Source of the DNA: Escherichia coli
GTDB lineage: Bacteria; Pseudomonadota; Gammaproteobacteria; Enterobacterales; Enterobacteriaceae
Direction: 5' to 3' (one strand)
Length of the DNA: 64,000 nucleotides
Assembly: GCF_003334305.1 (NCBI RefSeq)
Contig: NZ_QOWS01000016.1
The notes beneath the pieces are model-generated. The model saw nothing but the letters and a program-made list of their open reading frames with translations. It did no database searches and was not told the DNA's origin. Shown piece after piece: positions 11,587 to 18,830 of this stretch; position 1 is the stretch's first letter, and each line of letters starts with the position of its first letter. A program made the translations under genes and the position numbers.

Positions 11587-12013
11587 TCAAATTCTCCCGT
11601 CATTATCACCTCTGCTACTTAAATTTCCCGCTTTATAAGCCGATTAAATGATGAATAAACGCCCCTGTTAATGAATATCTGGCATGTTGTACTAAAAATC
11701 GATGTTTTGCTTTGACAATCCCCTGGTGTTTTGCGAAAACATTCGAGGAAGAAAAAAAACAGTATTCTTATATGCGCATAACCATGCATGTAAATACCAT
11801 GTTTACCGTGCTAGTGAAATCTACGTATGGCGTGGACAGACGCCATTCGTGATGTCGATAGCTGCCACAAGGCAACGGTCTTCTCACCGTAGACCCAGGC
11901 ATTGCGCGCCGTGAATCTTCATGATTTCGGTCTATCGTGACGGGTAGCGACTCTGAACAGTGATGTTTCAGGGTCAGACAGGAGTAGGGAAGGAATACAG
12001 AGAGACAATAATA

Positions 12014-12508
12014 ATGGTAGATAGCAAGAAGCGCCCTGGCAAAGATCTCGACCGTATCGATCGTAACATTCTTAATGAGTTGCAAAAGGATGGGCGTATT
12101 TCTAACGTCGAGCTTTCTAAACGTGTGGGACTTTCCCCAACGCCGTGCCTTGAGCGTGTGCGTCGGCTGGAAAGACAAGGGTTTATTCAGGGCTATACGG
12201 CGCTGCTTAACCCCCATTATCTGGATGCATCACTTCTGGTATTCGTTGAGATTACTCTGAATCGTGGCGCACCGGATGTGTTTGAACAATTCAATACCGC
12301 TGTACAAAAACTTGAAGAAATTCAGGAGTGTCATTTAGTATCTGGTGATTTCGACTACCTGTTGAAAACACGCGTGCCGGATATGTCAGCTTACCGTAAG
12401 TTGCTGGGGGAAACCCTGCTGCGTCTGCCTGGCGTCAATGACACACGGACATACGTTGTTATGGAAGAAGTCAAGCAGAGTAATCGTCTGGTTATTAAGA
12501 CGCGCTAA
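12014..12508 (+). CDS. lrp: lrp, leucine-responsive regulatory protein (164 aa)
   Basis: ORF track 11960..12508 trimmed to MVDSKKRPGKDLDRIDRNILNELQKDGRISNVELSKRVGLSPTPCLERVRRLE (AsnC/Lrp HTH). Confidence 0.95.
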   Translation: MVDSKKRPGKDLDRIDRNILNELQKDGRISNVELSKRVGLSPTPCLERVRRLERQGFIQGYTALLNPHYLDASLLVFVEITLNRGAPDVFEQFNTAVQKLEEIQECHLVSGDFDYLLKTRVPDMSAYRKLLGETLLRLPGVNDTRTYVVMEEVKQSNRLVIKTR

Positions 12509-12546
12509 CACGGAACAGGTGCAAAATCGGCGTATTTTGATTACAC

Positions 12547-12566
12547 TCCTGTTAATCCATACAGCA
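12547..12566. promoter_or_regulatory. Candidate LexA (SOS) box upstream of ftsK
   Basis: tcCTGttaatccataCAGca fits CTG-N10-CAG; about 80 bp upstream of the ftsK TTG start. Confidence 0.45.
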
Positions 12567-12642
12567 ACAGTACTGGGGTAACCTGGTACTGTTGTCCGTT
12601 TTAGCATCGGGCAGGAAAAGCCTGTAACCTGGAGAGCCTTTC

Positions 12643-15600
12643 TTGAGCCAGGAATACACTGAAGACAAAGAAGTCACATTGACAAAGTTAAGTAGCGGCC
12701 GTCGCCTTCTGGAAGCGTTGCTGATCCTTATTGTCCTGTTTGCCGTCTGGTTGATGGCTGCCTTACTAAGCTTTAACCCTTCGGACCCCAGCTGGTCGCA
12801 AACGGCCTGGCATGAACCTATCCATAATTTAGGTGGGATGCCCGGTGCGTGGCTGGCAGATACGCTGTTCTTTATTTTTGGCGTGATGGCTTACACCATT
12901 CCCGTCATTATTGTCGGCGGTTGTTGGTTTGCCTGGCGTCATCAGTCCAGTGACGAATACATTGATTATTTTGCCGTTTCGCTACGCATCATTGGCGTTT
13001 TGGCGCTCATCCTTACCTCCTGTGGTCTGGCGGCAATCAACGCTGACGATATCTGGTATTTTGCCTCCGGTGGCGTCATTGGCAGCTTACTAAGCACTAC
13101 GCTACAACCACTGCTACACAGTAGCGGGGGAACTATTGCGCTGCTCTGCGTTTGGGCTGCGGGCCTGACGCTGTTCACCGGTTGGTCATGGGTGACCATT
13201 GCTGAAAAACTCGGCGGCTGGATTTTAAACATTCTCACCTTCGCCAGTAATCGTACCCGTCGCGATGATACCTGGGTCGATGAAGATGAATATGAAGATG
13301 ACGAAGAGTATGAAGATGAAAACCACGGCAAACAGCATGAATCACGCCGTGCCCGTATTCTTCGCGGCGCGCTAGCGCGTCGTAAACGGTTGGCGGAAAA
13401 ATTCATTAATCCGATGGGGCGGCAAACAGACGCTGCGTTGTTCTCCGGTAAGCGGATGGATGATGACGAAGAGATTATCTACACTGCACGCGGTGTGGCT
13501 GCCGACCCGGACGACGTCCTATTTTCGGGCAATCGTGCAACGCAGCCAGAATATGACGAATACGATCCATTATTAAACGGTGCGCCAATTACCGAACCTG
13601 TCGCTGTAGCAGCTGCTGCTACCACGGCGACACAAAGCTGGGCTGCGCCGGTTGAACCTGTGACTCAGACGCCGCCTGTTGCCTCTGTTGATGTTCCACC
13701 TTCGCAACCTACAGTAGCCTGGCAGCCTGTACCGGGTCCACAAACGGGAGAGCCGGTTATTGCTCCTGCACCGGAAGGTTACCCACAGCAGTCACAATAT
13801 GCGCAGCCTGCAGTGCAATATAATGAGCCGCTGCAACAACCAGTACAGCCGCAGCAGCCGTATTATGCACCTGCAGCTGAACAACCTGCGCAACAACCTT
13901 ACTACGCTCCTGCGGCGGAACAACCTGTTCAGCAACCGTATTACGCCCCTGCGCCAGAACAACCGGTGGCAGGTAACGCCTGGCAAGCCGAAGAGCAGCA
14001 ATCCACTTTTGCTCCACAGTCTACATACCAGACTGAGCAAACTTATCAGCAACCAGCCGCTCAGGAGCCGTTGTACCAACAGCCGCAATCCGTTGAACAG
14101 CAGCCTGTTGTGGAGCCTGAACCCGTTGTAGAAGAGACAAAACCCGCGCGTCCGCCGCTTTACTATTTTGAAGAAGTGGAAGAGAAGCGAGCCCGTGAAC
14201 GTGAACAACTTGCGGCCTGGTATCAACCGATTCCAGAACCGGTTAAAGAACCAGAACCGATCAAATCTTCGTTGAAAGCGCCTTCTGTTGCAGCAGTACC
14301 TCCAGTAGAAGCCGCTGCCGCTGTTTCTCCGCTGGCATCTGGCGTGAAAAAAGCGACACTGGCGACGGGGGCTGCCGCAACCGTTGCCGCGCCAGTCTTC
14401 AGTCTGGCAAATAGCGGTGGACCGCGTCCGCAAGTCAAAGAGGGGATTGGCCCGCAGTTGCCACGACCGAAACGTATCCGCGTGCCAACTCGTCGTGAAC
14501 TGGCGTCTTACGGTATTAAGCTGCCCTCACAGCGTGCGGCGGAAGAGAAAGCCCGTGAAGCCCAGCGCAATCAGTATGATTCTGGCGATCAGTATAACGA
14601 TGATGAAATCGATGCGATGCAGCAGGATGAACTGGCACGTCAGTTCGCCCAGACACAGCAGCAACGCTATGGCGAACAGTATCAACATGATGTGCCCGTA
14701 AACGCAGAAGATGCAGATGCTGCGGCAGAGGCTGAACTGGCTCGTCAGTTTGCGCAAACTCAACAACAACGTTATTCCGGCGAACAACCGGCTGGGGCGA
14801 ATCCGTTCTCGCTGGATGATTTTGAATTTTCGCCAATGAAAGCGTTGCTGGATGATGGTCCACACGAACCGTTGTTTACGCCAATTGTTGAACCTGTACA
14901 GCAGCCGCAACAACCGGTTGCACCGCAGCAGCAGTATCAGCAGCCGCAACAACCAGTTCCGCCACAGCAGCAATATCAGCAGCCGCAACAGCCGGTTGCG
15001 CCGCAGCCGCAGTATCAGCAGCCACAACAGCAGGTTGCGCCGCAGCCACAATATCAGCAGCCGCAACAACCGGTTGCGCCACAGCCGCAATATCAGCAGC
15101 CGCAACAACCAGTTGCGCCGCAGCCGCAGTATCAACAGCCGCAACAACCGGTTGCACCGCAGCAGCAGGATACCCTGCTTCATCCGCTGTTGATGCGTAA
15201 TGGCGACAGCCGTCCGTTGCATAAACCGACGACGCCGCTGCCTTCTCTGGATTTGCTGACACCGCCGCCGAGCGAAGTGGAGCCGGTAGATACCTTTGCG
15301 CTTGAACAAATGGCTCGCCTGGTGGAAGCGCGTCTGGCTGATTTCCGTATTAAAGCCGATGTCGTCAATTACTCTCCGGGGCCGGTTATCACTCGCTTTG
15401 AACTTAACCTGGCTCCTGGCGTAAAAGCGGCGCGCATTTCTAACTTGTCACGGGACCTTGCCCGTTCACTTTCGACGGTGGCGGTGCGTGTCGTTGAAGT
15501 TATTCCTGGCAAACCCTATGTAGGTCTGGAGTTACCAAATAAAAAACGACAAACCGTTTATCTGCGCGAAGTTTTGGATAACGCCAAATTCCGCGATAAT

Positions 15601-16710
15601 CCGTCGCCATTAACCGTGGTGCTGGGTAAAGATATCGCCGGTGAGCCGGTGGTTGCCGATCTGGCGAAAATGCCGCACTTGTTGGTTGCGGGGACTACCG
15701 GTTCCGGTAAATCTGTCGGTGTGAACGCGATGATCCTGAGCATGCTTTATAAAGCACAGCCAGAAGATGTGCGTTTCATCATGATCGACCCGAAAATGCT
15801 GGAGCTTTCGGTTTATGAAGGCATTCCGCATCTGTTAACGGAAGTCGTTACTGATATGAAAGATGCCGCCAACGCGCTGCGCTGGTGTGTTAACGAGATG
15901 GAGCGTCGGTATAAACTGATGTCTGCGCTGGGTGTGCGTAATCTGGCGGGTTATAACGAAAAAATTGCTGAAGCCGATCGCATGATGCGTCCGATTCCAG
16001 ACCCGTACTGGAAGCCGGGTGACAGTATGGATGCCCAGCATCCGGTGCTGAAAAAAGAACCATACATTGTGGTGTTGGTTGACGAATTTGCCGACCTGAT
16101 GATGACGGTAGGTAAAAAAGTGGAAGAGCTGATAGCACGTCTGGCGCAAAAAGCCCGTGCCGCGGGTATCCACCTCGTACTGGCAACTCAGCGTCCATCG
16201 GTTGATGTTATTACTGGTCTGATTAAAGCGAATATTCCGACCCGTATCGCCTTTACCGTATCCAGTAAGATTGACTCACGTACCATTCTTGATCAGGCTG
16301 GCGCGGAATCACTGCTGGGGATGGGGGATATGCTCTACTCTGGGCCGAACTCCACGTTGCCGGTACGTGTCCATGGTGCTTTTGTTCGCGATCAGGAAGT
16401 TCATGCCGTGGTGCAGGACTGGAAAGCGCGTGGTCGCCCACAGTATGTTGATGGCATCACTTCCGACAGTGAAAGCGAAGGTGGCGCGGGCGGTTTCGAT
16501 GGCGCTGAAGAACTGGATCCGTTGTTCGATCAGGCGGTGCAGTTTGTCACTGAAAAACGCAAAGCGTCAATTTCTGGCGTACAGCGTCAGTTCCGCATTG
16601 GTTATAACCGTGCAGCGCGTATTATCGAACAGATGGAAGCGCAGGGGATTGTCAGCGAACAGGGGCACAACGGTAATCGTGAAGTGCTGGCCCCACCGCC
16701 GTTTGACTAA
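12643..16710 (+). CDS. ftsK: ftsK, DNA translocase (1355 aa as encoded here; TTG start)
   Basis: ORF 12643..16710 starts at TTG with protein [27 protein letters not shown]; N-terminal TM domain, Pro/Gln-rich repetitive linker, C-terminal motor with Walker A GTTGSGKS. Confidence 0.95.
14899..15171 (+). repeat. In-frame 39-bp tandem repeat (7 copies, last one degenerate) encoding [13 protein letters not shown] units in the FtsK linker
   Basis: Copies at 14899, 14938, 14977, 15016, 15055, 15094, 15133; unit cagcagccgcaacaaccggttgcgccgcagccgcagtat with point variation. Confidence 0.9.
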
Positions 16711-16718
16711 TTAATGCA

Positions 16719-16753
16719 TTGCCGGATAAGGCGCGGTAGCGTCGCATCCGGCA
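16719..16753. repeat. REP (repetitive extragenic palindromic) element between ftsK and lolA
   Basis: TGCCGGATAAGGCGCGGTAGCGTCGCATCCGGCA, imperfect palindrome of the GCCGGATG / CATCCGGC type. Confidence 0.75.
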
Positions 16754-16864
16754 CTCTATCAACTGAAAATTCAGTATTTTCTTCTTTCCTCAAGCTGATT
16801 ATTAGCCTGGAATAGAGAGTAGAGGGAACTCCCGATCGGGAGTGACGTAATTTGAGGAATAATG

Positions 16865-17476
16865 ATGAAAAAAATTGCCATCACCTGTGCATTACTCTCA
16901 AGCTTAGTAGCAAGCAGCGTTTGGGCTGATGCCGCAAGCGATCTGAAAAGCCGCCTGGATAAAGTCAGCAGCTTCCACGCCAGCTTCACACAAAAAGTGA
17001 CTGACGGTAGCGGCGCGGCGGTGCAGGAAGGTCAGGGCGATCTGTGGGTGAAACGTCCAAACTTATTCAACTGGCATATGACACAACCTGATGAAAGCAT
17101 TCTGGTTTCTGACGGTAAAACACTGTGGTTCTATAACCCGTTCGTTGAGCAAGCTACGGCAACCTGGCTGAAAGATGCCACCGGTAATACGCCGTTTATG
17201 CTGATTGCCCGCAACCAGTCCAGCGACTGGCAGCAGTACAATATCAAACAGAATGGCGATGACTTTGTCCTGACGCCGAAAGCCAGCAATGGCAATCTGA
17301 AGCAGTTCACCATTAACGTGGGACGTGATGGCACAATCCATCAGTTTAGCGCGGTGGAGCAGGACGATCAGCGCAGCAGTTATCAACTGAAATCCCAGCA
17401 AAATGGGGCTGTGGATGCAGCGAAATTTACCTTCACCCCGCCGCAAGGCGTCACGGTAGATGATCAACGTAAGTAG
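16865..17476 (+). CDS. lolA: lolA, periplasmic lipoprotein carrier (203 aa)
   Basis: ORF 16862..17476 has tandem ATG ATG; protein [34 protein letters not shown] with signal peptide. Confidence 0.93.
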
Positions 17477-17486
17477 AGGCACCTGA

Positions 17487-18830
17487 GTGAGCAATCTGTC
17501 GCTCGATTTTTCGGATAATACTTTTCAACCTCTGGCCGCGCGTATGCGGCCAGAAAATTTAGCACAGTATATCGGCCAGCAACATTTGCTGGCTGCGGGG
17601 AAGCCGTTGCCGCGCGCTATCGAAGCCGGGCATTTACATTCTATGATCCTCTGGGGGCCACCGGGTACCGGCAAAACAACCCTCGCTGAAGTGATTGCCC
17701 GCTATGCGAACGCTGATGTGGAACGTATTTCTGCCGTCACCTCTGGCGTGAAAGAAATTCGCGAGGCGATCGAGCGCGCCCGGCAAAATCGCAATGCAGG
17801 TCGCCGCACTATTCTTTTTGTTGATGAAGTTCACCGTTTCAACAAAAGCCAGCAGGATGCATTTCTGCCACATATTGAAGACGGCACCATCACTTTTATT
17901 GGCGCAACCACTGAAAACCCGTCGTTTGAGCTTAATTCGGCACTGCTTTCCCGTGCCCGTGTCTATCTATTGAAATCCCTGAGTACAGAGGATATTGAGC
18001 AAGTACTAACTCAGGCGATGGAAGACAAAACCCGTGGCTATGGTGGTCAGGATATTGTTCTGCCAGATGAAACACGACGCGCCATTGCTGAACTGGTGAA
18101 TGGCGACGCGCGCCGGGCGTTAAATACGCTGGAAATGATGGCGGATATGGCCGAAGTCGATGATAGCGGTAAGCGGGTCCTGAAGCCTGAATTACTGACC
18201 GAAATCGCAGGTGAACGTAGCGCCCGCTTTGATAACAAAGGCGATCGCTTTTACGATCTGATTTCCGCACTGCATAAGTCGGTACGTGGTAGCGCACCCG
18301 ATGCGGCGCTCTACTGGTATGCGCGAATTATTACCGCCGGTGGCGATCCGTTATATGTCGCGCGTCGTTGCCTGGCAATTGCTTCCGAAGATGTCGGCAA
18401 TGCCGACCCACGGGCGATGCAGGTGGCAATTGCGGCCTGGGATTGCTTTACTCGCGTTGGCCCGGCGGAAGGTGAACGCGCCATTGCTCAGGCGATTGTT
18501 TACCTGGCCTGCGCGCCAAAAAGCAACGCTGTCTACACTGCGTTTAAAGCCGCGCTGGCGGATGCTCGCGAACGTCCGGATTATGACGTGCCGGTTCATT
18601 TGCGTAATGCGCCGACGAAATTAATGAAGGAAATGGGCTACGGGCAGGAATATCGTTACGCTCATGATGAAGCAAACGCTTATGCTGCCGGTGAGGTTTA
18701 CTTCCCGCCGGAAATAGCACAAACACGCTATTATTTCCCGACAAACAGGGGCCTTGAAGGCAAGATTGGCGAAAAGCTCGCCTGGCTGGCTGAACAGGAT
18801 CAAAATAGCCCCATAAAACGCTACCGTTAA
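17487..18830 (+). CDS. rarA: rarA (ycaJ), replication-associated recombination AAA+ ATPase (447 aa; GTG start)
   Basis: GTG at 17487; Walker [10 protein letters not shown], Walker [11 protein letters not shown]. Confidence 0.93.

Follow-up and report, generated by a model that had tools for sequence, protein, structure and literature searches.

The linker of the Escherichia coli FtsK protein probably combines repeats of two kinds in a mosaic, which differ in their evolutionary behavior and are likely to differ in their roles. Two of the repeats, here termed arrays A and C, are in-frame, minisatellite-like arrays of 39-bp units in segments rich in proline, glutamine and alanine, poorly conserved and predicted to be unstructured. 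The third, pair B, would represent the conserved center of an ancient tandem duplication spanning approximately 35 residues, in which an acidic stretch is followed by a helix, and its motif ELARQFAxxQxxRY appears to be maintained by selection on the protein sequence. All three are located in one gene within a 64,000-nt stretch of E. coli DNA (RefSeq assembly GCF_003334305.1, contig NZ_QOWS01000016.1), referred to as the window. The FtsK linker is needed for full activity, yet it is commonly regarded as a tether without features of its own; dividing it into the spacers A and C on one side and pair B with further conserved islands on the other indicates which few dozen of its ~650 residues should be mutated in the search for contacts.

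The ftsK gene and the repeat families of its linker

The ftsK coding sequence extends from position 12643 to 16710 on the plus strand, begins with a TTG start codon and encodes 1355 amino acids, as defined by the list of open reading frames (ORFs), the identity match to ftsK and the NCBIfam model NF007615. The segment 13700-15300 matches ftsK in all 5,426 of 5,426 E. coli genomes, in some of which the annotated ftsK is 100% identical. NF007615, “DNA translocase FtsK” (PRK10263, an enterobacterial equivalog), aligned amino acids 180-886 with profile positions 180-886 of 1355 (E = 0); its score of 1417.5 bits was obtained with the linker fragment alone, while the curated cut-off of 1566 bits refers to the whole protein. 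The gene name given in the initial annotation was thus corroborated by both the identity and the profile match. On either side, ftsK is bordered by ORFs at 11960-12508 and 16862-17476, whose translations, recognized by eye, presumably represent Lrp and LolA, followed by a presumed RarA at 17487-18830. With the flanking ORFs named by recognition, the usual lrp-ftsK-lolA neighborhood is present. No Pfam family was detected on the linker, even at E ≤ 10, and a PDB sequence search with the linker yielded a best E-value of 0.49 and no solved structure of the region.

A self-BLASTP of FtsK returned no off-diagonal matches, and a custom windowed protein dot-plot was used instead. It displayed just three diagonals: one with an offset of 13 residues (aa 404-443, array A), one with an offset of 35 (aa 657-711, pair B) and one with an offset of 13 and its multiples (aa 753-843, array C). 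Self-similarity therefore exists beyond the main array at 14899-15171, as the initial annotation had proposed. After removal of array C, the best 14-residue self-match of the linker was 14/14, while 200 global and 200 local-composition shuffles reached no more than 9/14.

Arrays A and C share the 39-bp period, and a common origin was considered. This was rejected, as units of A match the C array at 23 of 39 positions, below the average of 24.4 (maximum 29) for codon-shuffled versions of A. A C-like stretch is situated just upstream of A (13823-13863) and shares 33 of 41 nucleotides (80%) with a C unit, and C-like windows within the region reach 30/41 upstream and 32/41 downstream of A (near 14047). 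Codon shuffling itself gave maxima of 31 and 30, which these values hardly exceed, and the flanking stretches were therefore not counted as homologues. Repeat detection, the dot-plot and the shuffle test of A against C agree with the earlier claim that at least three distinct repeat families build the linker.

Length variation of arrays A and C

Array A occupies positions 13855-13971 on the plus strand (aa 405-443) and consists of three in-frame 39-bp units of 13 residues each, located at 13855-13893, 13894-13932 and 13933-13971 when read in the ftsK frame. At 13850-13964, Tandem Repeats Finder detected 2.9 copies of a 39-bp period (78% matches, score 125), and a repeat search identified three copies with 77-79% nucleotide identity (family D7). 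The three consecutive units noted earlier at 13852-13963 were correct in number, but that placement is shifted by one codon and ends 8 nt too early. Array C, the main proline/glutamine array, was delineated by repeat detection at 14899-15171 on the plus strand (aa 753-843) and contains seven 39-bp units of 13 residues (period 39 bp, 6.9 copies in Tandem Repeats Finder).

Proline, glutamine and alanine together account for ~70-80% of both arrays, with 26% P, 26% A and 21% Q in array A and 51% Q and 27% P in array C. In a comparison of 58 sequences, no other stretches of the linker were as poorly conserved or as rich in gaps as the two that contain A and C (identity 0.12-0.66, gap fraction up to 0.84). 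Biased composition and poor conservation are the features expected of disordered spacers, and the structural part of this assignment comes from array A, for which AlphaFold2 predicted no secondary structure at a pLDDT of 47-51.

The copy number of array A differs between strains: the E. coli alleles read contain 1, 2, 3 or 4 units, and E. whittamii has 5. Population figures were obtained from 60 evenly spaced records out of 5,427 and from nine alleles that were read directly, including one-copy and four-copy alleles. A 186-bp query for array A gave record spans of 108, 147 and 186 bp. In this sample, about one third of the records carried three units (186 bp), about one third carried two units (147 bp) and about one third showed broken alignments, two of which were read and contained four units; a single record had one unit. 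Array C is present in 5-9 copies in seven E. coli alleles, and the E. coli ftsK alleles read, with 2-4 A units and 5-9 C units, encode 1312-1381 amino acids. Together, the two arrays give ftsK many length alleles. Many database records labeled as partial FtsK can be attributed to the two 39-bp arrays, which break short-read assemblies.

Among the genera compared, array A is confined to Escherichia, and no PYY units were found in the Citrobacter, Salmonella, Enterobacter and Klebsiella species read. Other genera exhibit unrelated arrays at this position, for example six copies of 24 residues in K. pneumoniae and 3.7 copies of 13 residues in Superficieibacter. Array C is shared with Salmonella and Citrobacter, which carry a 13-residue array of 2-8 copies. 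A difference of two tandem units between strains has also been described for the ftsK linker of Salmonella Enteritidis (PMC6137255).

The constant 39-bp period and the whole-unit differences between strains identify A and C as in-frame variable-number tandem repeats, and they resemble other bacterial in-frame coding minisatellites in their head-to-tail units, a period that is a multiple of three and changes by entire units. However, in contrast to contingency loci with near-identical units, the units of A and C have diverged from one another by 12-26% at the DNA level, mainly at synonymous sites, which marks them as old repeats rather than fast-switching ones. Codon differences between the first two A units comprise 8 synonymous and 1 non-synonymous changes, and adjacent pairs of C units show a ratio of 20 synonymous to 7 non-synonymous differences. 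Given this synonymous excess, A and C may be under some sequence constraint as well and might not be pure spacers. Whole 13-residue units would be gained and lost by replication slippage or by unequal recombination between units, and the arrays most likely serve as flexible, length-tolerant spacers that link the membrane anchor to the DNA motor.

The duplicated motif of pair B and neighboring conserved islands

Pair B is located upstream of array C. The duplicated 14-residue block recognized in the initial annotation is real, and its exact coordinates on the plus strand are 14629-14670 (B1, aa 663-676) and 14734-14775 (B2, aa 698-711). In E. coli, the two copies are identical in 14 of 14 amino acids and exhibit eight synonymous and no non-synonymous codon differences, with 81% DNA identity over 47 nt (family D11). 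Directly outside the copies, the nine flanking codons contain seven non-synonymous differences. The segment between them (14671-14733, plus strand, aa 677-697), characterized by composition, spacing and conservation, indeed forms the acidic spacer that had been postulated, as its 21 residues include six acidic and no basic ones (net charge -6). Its first part, aa 677-687, is a variable loop and its second part, aa 688-697, is the start of the B2 helix; identity drops to 0.40 for aa 681-690, and species differ in how long the segment is.

AlphaFold2 predicts two helices of 24 residues each, which end exactly at the RY of the motif, so that each 14-residue block constitutes the C-terminal portion of its helix. 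The B1 helix (14599-14670, plus strand, aa 653-676) corresponds to model residues 163-186, with a pLDDT of 77-91 and a conservation of 0.90, and the B2 helix (14704-14775, plus strand, aa 688-711) to model residues 198-221, with a pLDDT of 77-84 and a conservation of 0.77-0.84. At a pTM of 0.20 for this model (0.16-0.20 for both linker models), the helices are isolated predictions and not a fold. In addition, sequences rich in glutamine, alanine and glutamate are intrinsically prone to helix formation, and helicity by itself therefore says little about function. The amphipathicity of the motif is weak (hydrophobic moment 0.33). A function as membrane-binding amphipathic helix was considered and rejected on the basis of this low hydrophobic moment and of the net acidic character of the helices and their flanks (-3 to -6).

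In contrast to the arrays, the copy number of pair B is constant in the E. coli genomes and in the Enterobacteriaceae species compared, and it does not behave as a variable-number repeat. A 271-nt query spanning the pair was covered to at least 80% at one place in each of the E. coli genomes (5,426 of 5,426). Of 30 records sampled at even intervals, 29 consisted of one full-length piece whose length was unchanged. Each of the 73 Enterobacteriaceae species read (73/73) carried exactly two copies, at a distance of 29-42 aa. These species stem from a scan with full-length comparison of the 80 best among 319 species with a match, and these 80 are all Enterobacteriaceae; a homologue search with the B segment had yielded fragments of less than 270 aa, and the full-length comparison was accordingly taken from the scan of genome contigs. 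Across 70 species, nucleotide entropy within the motif amounts to 1.1 bits at third codon positions and to 0.07-0.39 bits at first and second positions. Nine of the 14 residues (E1, L2, A3, Q5, F6, A7, Q10, R13 and Y14) are invariant in these species, giving the consensus ELARQFAxxQxxRY. Outside of the Enterobacteriaceae, in families assigned by profile search and cluster names, one to three copies of L-x3-F-x6-RY per FtsK were identified in Pantoea, Erwinia, Serratia, Proteus, Providencia, Xenorhabdus and Arsenophonus, and most of these copies have QQ as their residues eight and nine. The motif is limited to 76 clusters of a single bacterial order, the Enterobacterales, in a set of 1.84 billion representative proteins.

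Pair B is situated in conserved islands with identities of 0.84-0.90 and without gaps in the 58 sequences. Immediately upstream, the conservation profile reveals another island at 14413-14562 (plus strand, aa 591-640), which contains a 17-residue element (14485-14535) that is invariant in all 58 sequences. A further island at 14143-14232 (plus strand, aa 501-530) shows an identity of 0.89-0.96 and includes a helix predicted for aa 509-526 in both AlphaFold2 models. Several parts of the linker are thus kept across the Enterobacteriaceae, namely aa 501-530, aa 591-640 and the B motif together with its flanks up to aa 750.

The linker had initially been characterized as a modular, low-complexity and probably disordered tether. 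Its modularity was confirmed, and low complexity and disorder apply to arrays A and C, but not to pair B with its high conservation, invariant positions and predicted helices. Instead, pair B shows the properties of a short motif, a conserved island amid variable sequence with selection at the protein level. As it is conserved, fixed in copy number and predicted to be helical, the linker is a mosaic of islands and variable spacers and not a uniform tether. Pair B most likely provides paired helical recognition motifs within an otherwise flexible linker; at the division site, these helices would interact with another protein or with a different region of FtsK. It is conceivable, though doubtful, that the duplicated helices and the invariant 17-residue element upstream act as specific docking sites of the linker, either for the division machinery or in the assembly of the FtsK hexamer itself. 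If so, these docking contacts would be the ones that, according to an earlier proposal, give way under the pull of the motor on trapped DNA, and they would offer a mutable handle on the proposed coupling of chromosome clearance to septum closure in the Enterobacterales.

Alternative explanations and relation to known linkers

The earlier reading of all three repeats, pair B included, as neutral by-products of slippage in low-complexity DNA that merely provide linker length is unlikely. It is in line with the overall character of the linker, which is rich in glutamine, proline and alanine, carries a net charge of -39 and is described as low-complexity, unstructured and poorly conserved (PMC5391129, PMC3646729), and arrays A and C do behave in this manner. 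Slippage products, however, would vary in copy number and accumulate amino acid changes, and neutrality is contradicted for pair B by the absence of length polymorphism in the sampled E. coli records, the two copies in 73 species, the invariant positions next to freely varying third codon positions and the identical protein sequence of copies that are 19% diverged in DNA. The similarity of the two copies might alternatively result from gene conversion, that is, from concerted evolution instead of selection on each copy. Both copies read FAQTQQQ in Escherichia while B2 of other genera reads FAA[ST]QQQ, and B1 resembles B2 of its own genome slightly more (12.41/14) than B2 of other species (12.00/14). 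Nevertheless, this explanation is highly improbable. Eight of 42 nucleotides differ between the E. coli copies, all of them synonymously, and the flanks diverge at once. Identity of B1 and B2 at third positions is equal within genomes (7.36/14) and between species (7.19/14), indicating that the copies have not been homogenized at the DNA level, and no conversion tracts shared within but not between genomes were seen. Furthermore, orthologous copies are conserved across genera (12.86/14 for B2 and 11.63/14 for B1).

An element at the DNA or RNA level could in principle underlie the conservation of pair B instead of the peptide; an internal promoter, a small RNA and an overlapping antisense gene are examples. 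This reading can be considered extremely improbable. Two long minus-strand ORFs (14516-14863 and 14527-15309) overlap the region, but they cross the variable arrays, whose CAG/CCG-rich sequence contains few stop codons in several frames. No Rfam family was matched over 12400-16900, and the variation within the motif falls almost entirely on third positions of the ftsK frame, which is the signature of selection on the protein encoded in this frame. A different proposal concerns the tyrosine-punctuated proline/glutamine arrays (A, C and the 24-residue array of Klebsiella), which might not be passive but act as stickers and spacers that make FtsK self-associate or condense at the septum, with the B helices aiding oligomerization of the hexamer. 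Regularly spaced tyrosines in a P/Q/A background are present in every unit of A, C and the arrays of other genera, the units exhibit more synonymous than non-synonymous divergence, and FtsK is a hexamer that is assembled at midcell (PMC3870252). On the other hand, copy numbers vary four- to five-fold among healthy natural strains and many genera possess no array at the A position, which argues against a strict requirement and leaves this proposal improbable. The interpretation of A and C as spacers and of pair B as a selected peptide motif is preferred.

The published FtsK linker (FtsKL) is a P/Q-rich, variable and putatively unstructured region of ~600-650 residues, which connects the anchor of four transmembrane segments (4TM) to the alpha-beta-gamma motor (PMC5357621, PMC3870252). 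The repeats analyzed here belong to the same gene and region, and arrays A and C represent its PQ-rich, length-variable component, which is known in general terms. The linker has, however, also been described as lacking “any evolutionarily conserved feature” (PMC5391129), whereas the islands reported here are conserved across the Enterobacteriaceae and the B motif reaches other families of the Enterobacterales. No description of the conserved islands or of the B motif was found in the searchable literature, but the study by Dubarry et al. (2010) may contain one. According to summaries of that study, parts of the linker reportedly contact FtsZ, FtsQ, FtsL and FtsI (Dubarry et al., 2010, summarized in PMC5357621 and PMC3646729). 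The known function of FtsK is unchanged by these findings, which are a modest refinement.

Short recognition motifs in disordered linkers occur elsewhere, and the C-terminal peptide of FtsZ is another example. A comparable case is the conserved motif in the unstructured linker of MLH1 (PMC9586283, PMC10325900), and pair B is likewise a short conserved island with selection on the protein and a predicted helix. Compared to such known motifs, pair B differs in its occurrence as two tandem copies, or one to three outside of the Enterobacteriaceae, and in its restriction to one bacterial order.

Repeat families in the FtsK linker

The three repeat families lie in a single long ORF (12643-16710, plus strand, 1355 aa), whose assignment to ftsK is borne out by several observations: annotated ftsK of several complete E. 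coli genomes is 100% identical to segment 13700-15300, this segment matches ftsK in 5,426/5,426 E. coli genomes of the collection, and the linker fragment aligns to NCBIfam NF007615 (DNA translocase FtsK; profile positions 180-886). In addition, judging by their translations, the neighboring upstream ORF is taken to be lrp, and those downstream lolA and rarA.

The initial annotation described three consecutive 13-residue units in the linker, the flexible middle part of FtsK between membrane anchor and DNA motor. Indeed, 2.9 copies of a 39-bp period were detected by Tandem Repeats Finder at 13850-13964, and three units are read in frame at 13855-13893, 13894-13932 and 13933-13971 (plus strand, aa 405-443, 13 residues each). 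These PYY-containing units are termed array A, while the main 39-bp PQ array, identified by the same program at 14899-15168, is termed array C. The duplicated 14-residue block was likewise found where it had been placed: the two copies of the motif ELARQFAxxQxxRY (pair B) are located at 14629-14670 (B1, aa 663-676) and 14734-14775 (B2, aa 698-711) on the plus strand, show 81% DNA identity across 47 nt and are separated by a spacer of 21 residues which, with a net charge of -6, is acidic as described. A windowed protein self dot-plot exhibited three diagonals only, at aa 404-443 (offset 13), aa 657-711 (offset 35) and aa 753-843 (offset 13 and multiples), two of which lie outside the main array at 14899-15171. 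With array C removed, the top 14-residue self-match in the linker was 14/14, whereas shuffled sequences (200 global, 200 local-composition) reached at most 9/14. Similarity between arrays A and C beyond their common 39-bp period was not detected (23/39 versus a codon-shuffle mean of 24.4). The linker repeats are therefore real and non-random, and the proposal of at least three distinct families stands.

Directly after the membrane domain lies a further small internal repeat, the fourth: a 14-residue acidic tract of Asp, Glu and Tyr (13279-13320, aa 213-226), for which Tandem Repeats Finder scores 6-bp and 18-bp periods.

Length variation of arrays A and C

Seven E. coli ftsK alleles were read over the full repeat region, each carrying two B copies: the window (1355 aa; three A and seven C units), a K-12-type allele (1329 aa; two and six), O157:H7 (1342 aa; two and seven), 1EC187 (1368 aa; four and seven), 20KM2762 (1381 aa; three and nine), strain 1105 (1347 aa; three and six) and Z1324SEC0014 (1312 aa; two and five). 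Of the 5,427 records obtained with a 186-bp query over array A, 60 were sampled at even intervals: three units (186-bp span) were found in 21, two (147 bp) in 18 and one (108 bp) in a single record; the alignment was broken in 19, and both of the two broken cases that were read contained four units. Alleles with one unit, four units and other variants were confirmed by direct reading. For pair B, at least 80% of a 271-bp query was covered by one place in 5,426/5,426 E. coli genomes. Among 30 evenly sampled records, 29 showed a single full-length piece of unchanged length and one was cut at position 232; identity was below 95% in five records.

As in-frame minisatellite-like spacers, arrays A and C vary in length by steps of 13 residues. 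Units would be gained and lost by slippage or unequal recombination, and copy numbers differing four- to five-fold are tolerated. Both the published view of the linker as P/Q-rich, variable and unstructured (PMC3870252, PMC5357621, PMC3646729) and a difference of two units reported for Salmonella Enteritidis ftsK (PMC6137255) are in line with this. As synonymous divergence exceeds non-synonymous divergence among the units of both arrays, some sequence constraint may nevertheless exist, for example on the regularly spaced tyrosines.

A genome scan with a B-region profile matched 319 species, the best 80 of which, all Enterobacteriaceae, were kept. Among these, the PYY-containing unit was found only in Escherichia species, in 2-5 copies (five in E. 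whittamii), with one stray PYY outside the genus. At the position of array A (homologous to 13660-14110), K. pneumoniae ATCC 13883 exhibits an unrelated 24-residue unit about six times and Superficieibacter electus a different 13-residue unit ~3.7 times, both P/Q/A-rich with regularly spaced Tyr like array A; most genera have no array there. New repeats seem to arise recurrently in this segment. The 13-residue C array is also present in Salmonella and Citrobacter (2-8 copies); in other genera, arrays have periods of 11-19 residues or are lacking.

Conservation and predicted structure of pair B

In a full-length alignment of 58 sequences, the linker appeared as a mosaic of conserved islands (aa 201-340, moderately, 491-535, 591-640, 661-680 and 691-750) and poorly conserved, gap-rich segments, which hold array A (aa 341-490) and array C (aa 751-845). 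Its most conserved stretch is a 17-residue element (14485-14535, aa 615-631) in the island aa 591-640, invariant in 58/58 Enterobacteriaceae FtsK, recognizable in Erwinia-type fragments and partly so in other representatives; the literature searched assigned it no function. Another island of 30 residues (14143-14232, aa 501-530) shows an identity of 0.89-0.96.

Among the best 80 of the 319 species, LARQFAxxQxxRY occurs exactly twice, 29-42 residues apart, in 73/73 species with a recovered ORF. Among 1.84 billion representative proteins, a profile search returned only 76 clusters; those with names are all from Enterobacterales (Pantoea, Erwinia, Serratia, Proteus, Providencia, Xenorhabdus, Arsenophonus, Plesiomonas). 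Apart from Plesiomonas, each of these genera has a related L-x3-F-x6-RY motif in 1-3 copies, positions eight and nine being QQ in most, and one cluster representative (P0063) contains three clear tandem units of ~32 residues each. These findings lead to the conclusion that an old tandem repeat with units of ~32-35 residues, each an acidic stretch followed by a helix, has pair B as its conserved core.

Several explanations for the likeness of B1 and B2 can be weighed. Maintenance by gene conversion is very unlikely, since third-position identity is no higher within a genome (7.36/14) than between species (7.19/14). Conservation as a DNA or RNA element is likewise made very unlikely by variation at third codon positions (entropy of 1.10-1.16 bits across 70 species, versus 0.07-0.39 bits at first and second positions) and by the lack of an Rfam family matching the gene. 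Instead, the pattern of substitutions argues for constraint on the peptide: all eight codons that differ between B1 and B2 in E. coli do so synonymously, B1/B2 differences in codons directly outside the motif are non-synonymous, and E1, L2, A3, Q5, F6, A7, Q10, R13 and Y14 are invariant across the 70 species. At the protein level, B1 is slightly closer to B2 of its own genome than to B2 of other species (12.41 versus 12.00 of 14; Escherichia, for example, has FAQT in both copies), a closeness absent at third codon positions in the loci compared (L007-L086). Parallel selection, for example through co-evolving with a partner, could account for it, as could the common ancestry of the species sampled.

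Neither Pfam families nor solved structures were found over the linker. An AlphaFold2 model of aa 491-752, based on the 58-sequence alignment, predicted helices at aa 509-526, 617-622, 628-645, 653-676 and 688-711, the last two finishing exactly at the RY of B1 and B2 (block pLDDT 77-91). Residues 539-591 remained below a pLDDT of 50, and the pTM of 0.20 indicates no compact fold. The helix aa 509-526, within the island aa 501-530, was also predicted in a second model (aa 301-530), in which array A had a pLDDT of 47-51 and no secondary structure; as the alignment is thin there, this is consistent with disorder but no proof of it.

The linker had been described as a modular, low-complexity and probably disordered tether. 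Modularity is upheld, and the remainder suits arrays A and C, whose segments are poorly conserved across Enterobacteriaceae, but not pair B, which is conserved and probably helical and functional. Pair B misfits the P/Q-rich, unstructured picture and is not easily reconciled with a published description of the linker as lacking "any evolutionarily conserved feature" (PMC5391129), a description valid for bacteria in general but not for Enterobacterales. Most economically, pair B is read as two short putative helical recognition motifs on acidic flexible arms. Given that the B segments are net acidic and have a low hydrophobic moment, they are unlikely to form a membrane-binding amphipathic helix. 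Contacts of the linker with FtsZ, FtsQ, FtsL and FtsI were reported by Dubarry et al. (2010), as cited in PMC5357621 and PMC3646729, and these proteins, or FtsK itself, are obvious candidate partners. A full-text literature search, which missed most subscription-journal papers, returned no description of the motif. Though a modest refinement within a very well-known gene, these results mainly serve as a pointer to residues worth mutating among the 650 of the linker.

Gene calls and database records

In the mechanical ORF list, ftsK starts with TTG at 12643 (MSQEY...), and the rule of taking the first ATG, GTG or TTG yields the expected FtsK N-terminus and the 1355-aa length of the NCBIfam model. 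Further ORFs overlap the linker in other frames, on the minus strand (13792-14433, 14516-14863, 14527-15309, 14876-15262) and on the plus strand (13760-14131, 14384-14701, 14852-15193). They span 105-260 aa, cross CAG/CCG-rich, stop-poor repeat DNA and are most likely artefacts, as variation tracks the ftsK reading frame.

The 90%-identity cluster of an Arsenophonus representative (P0118) contains LolA proteins of 205 aa besides FtsK proteins of ~1030 aa, which suggests a read-through or fusion call over adjoining ftsK and lolA. Public databases also hold many "partial FtsK" fragments of less than 270 aa ending within the linker (among P0001-P0091), presumably a consequence of short-read assemblies breaking at the 39-bp arrays. 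Two of the fragments, labeled Providencia rettgeri and Xanthomonas citri, share 97-98% identity with E. coli and appear to be contaminants.
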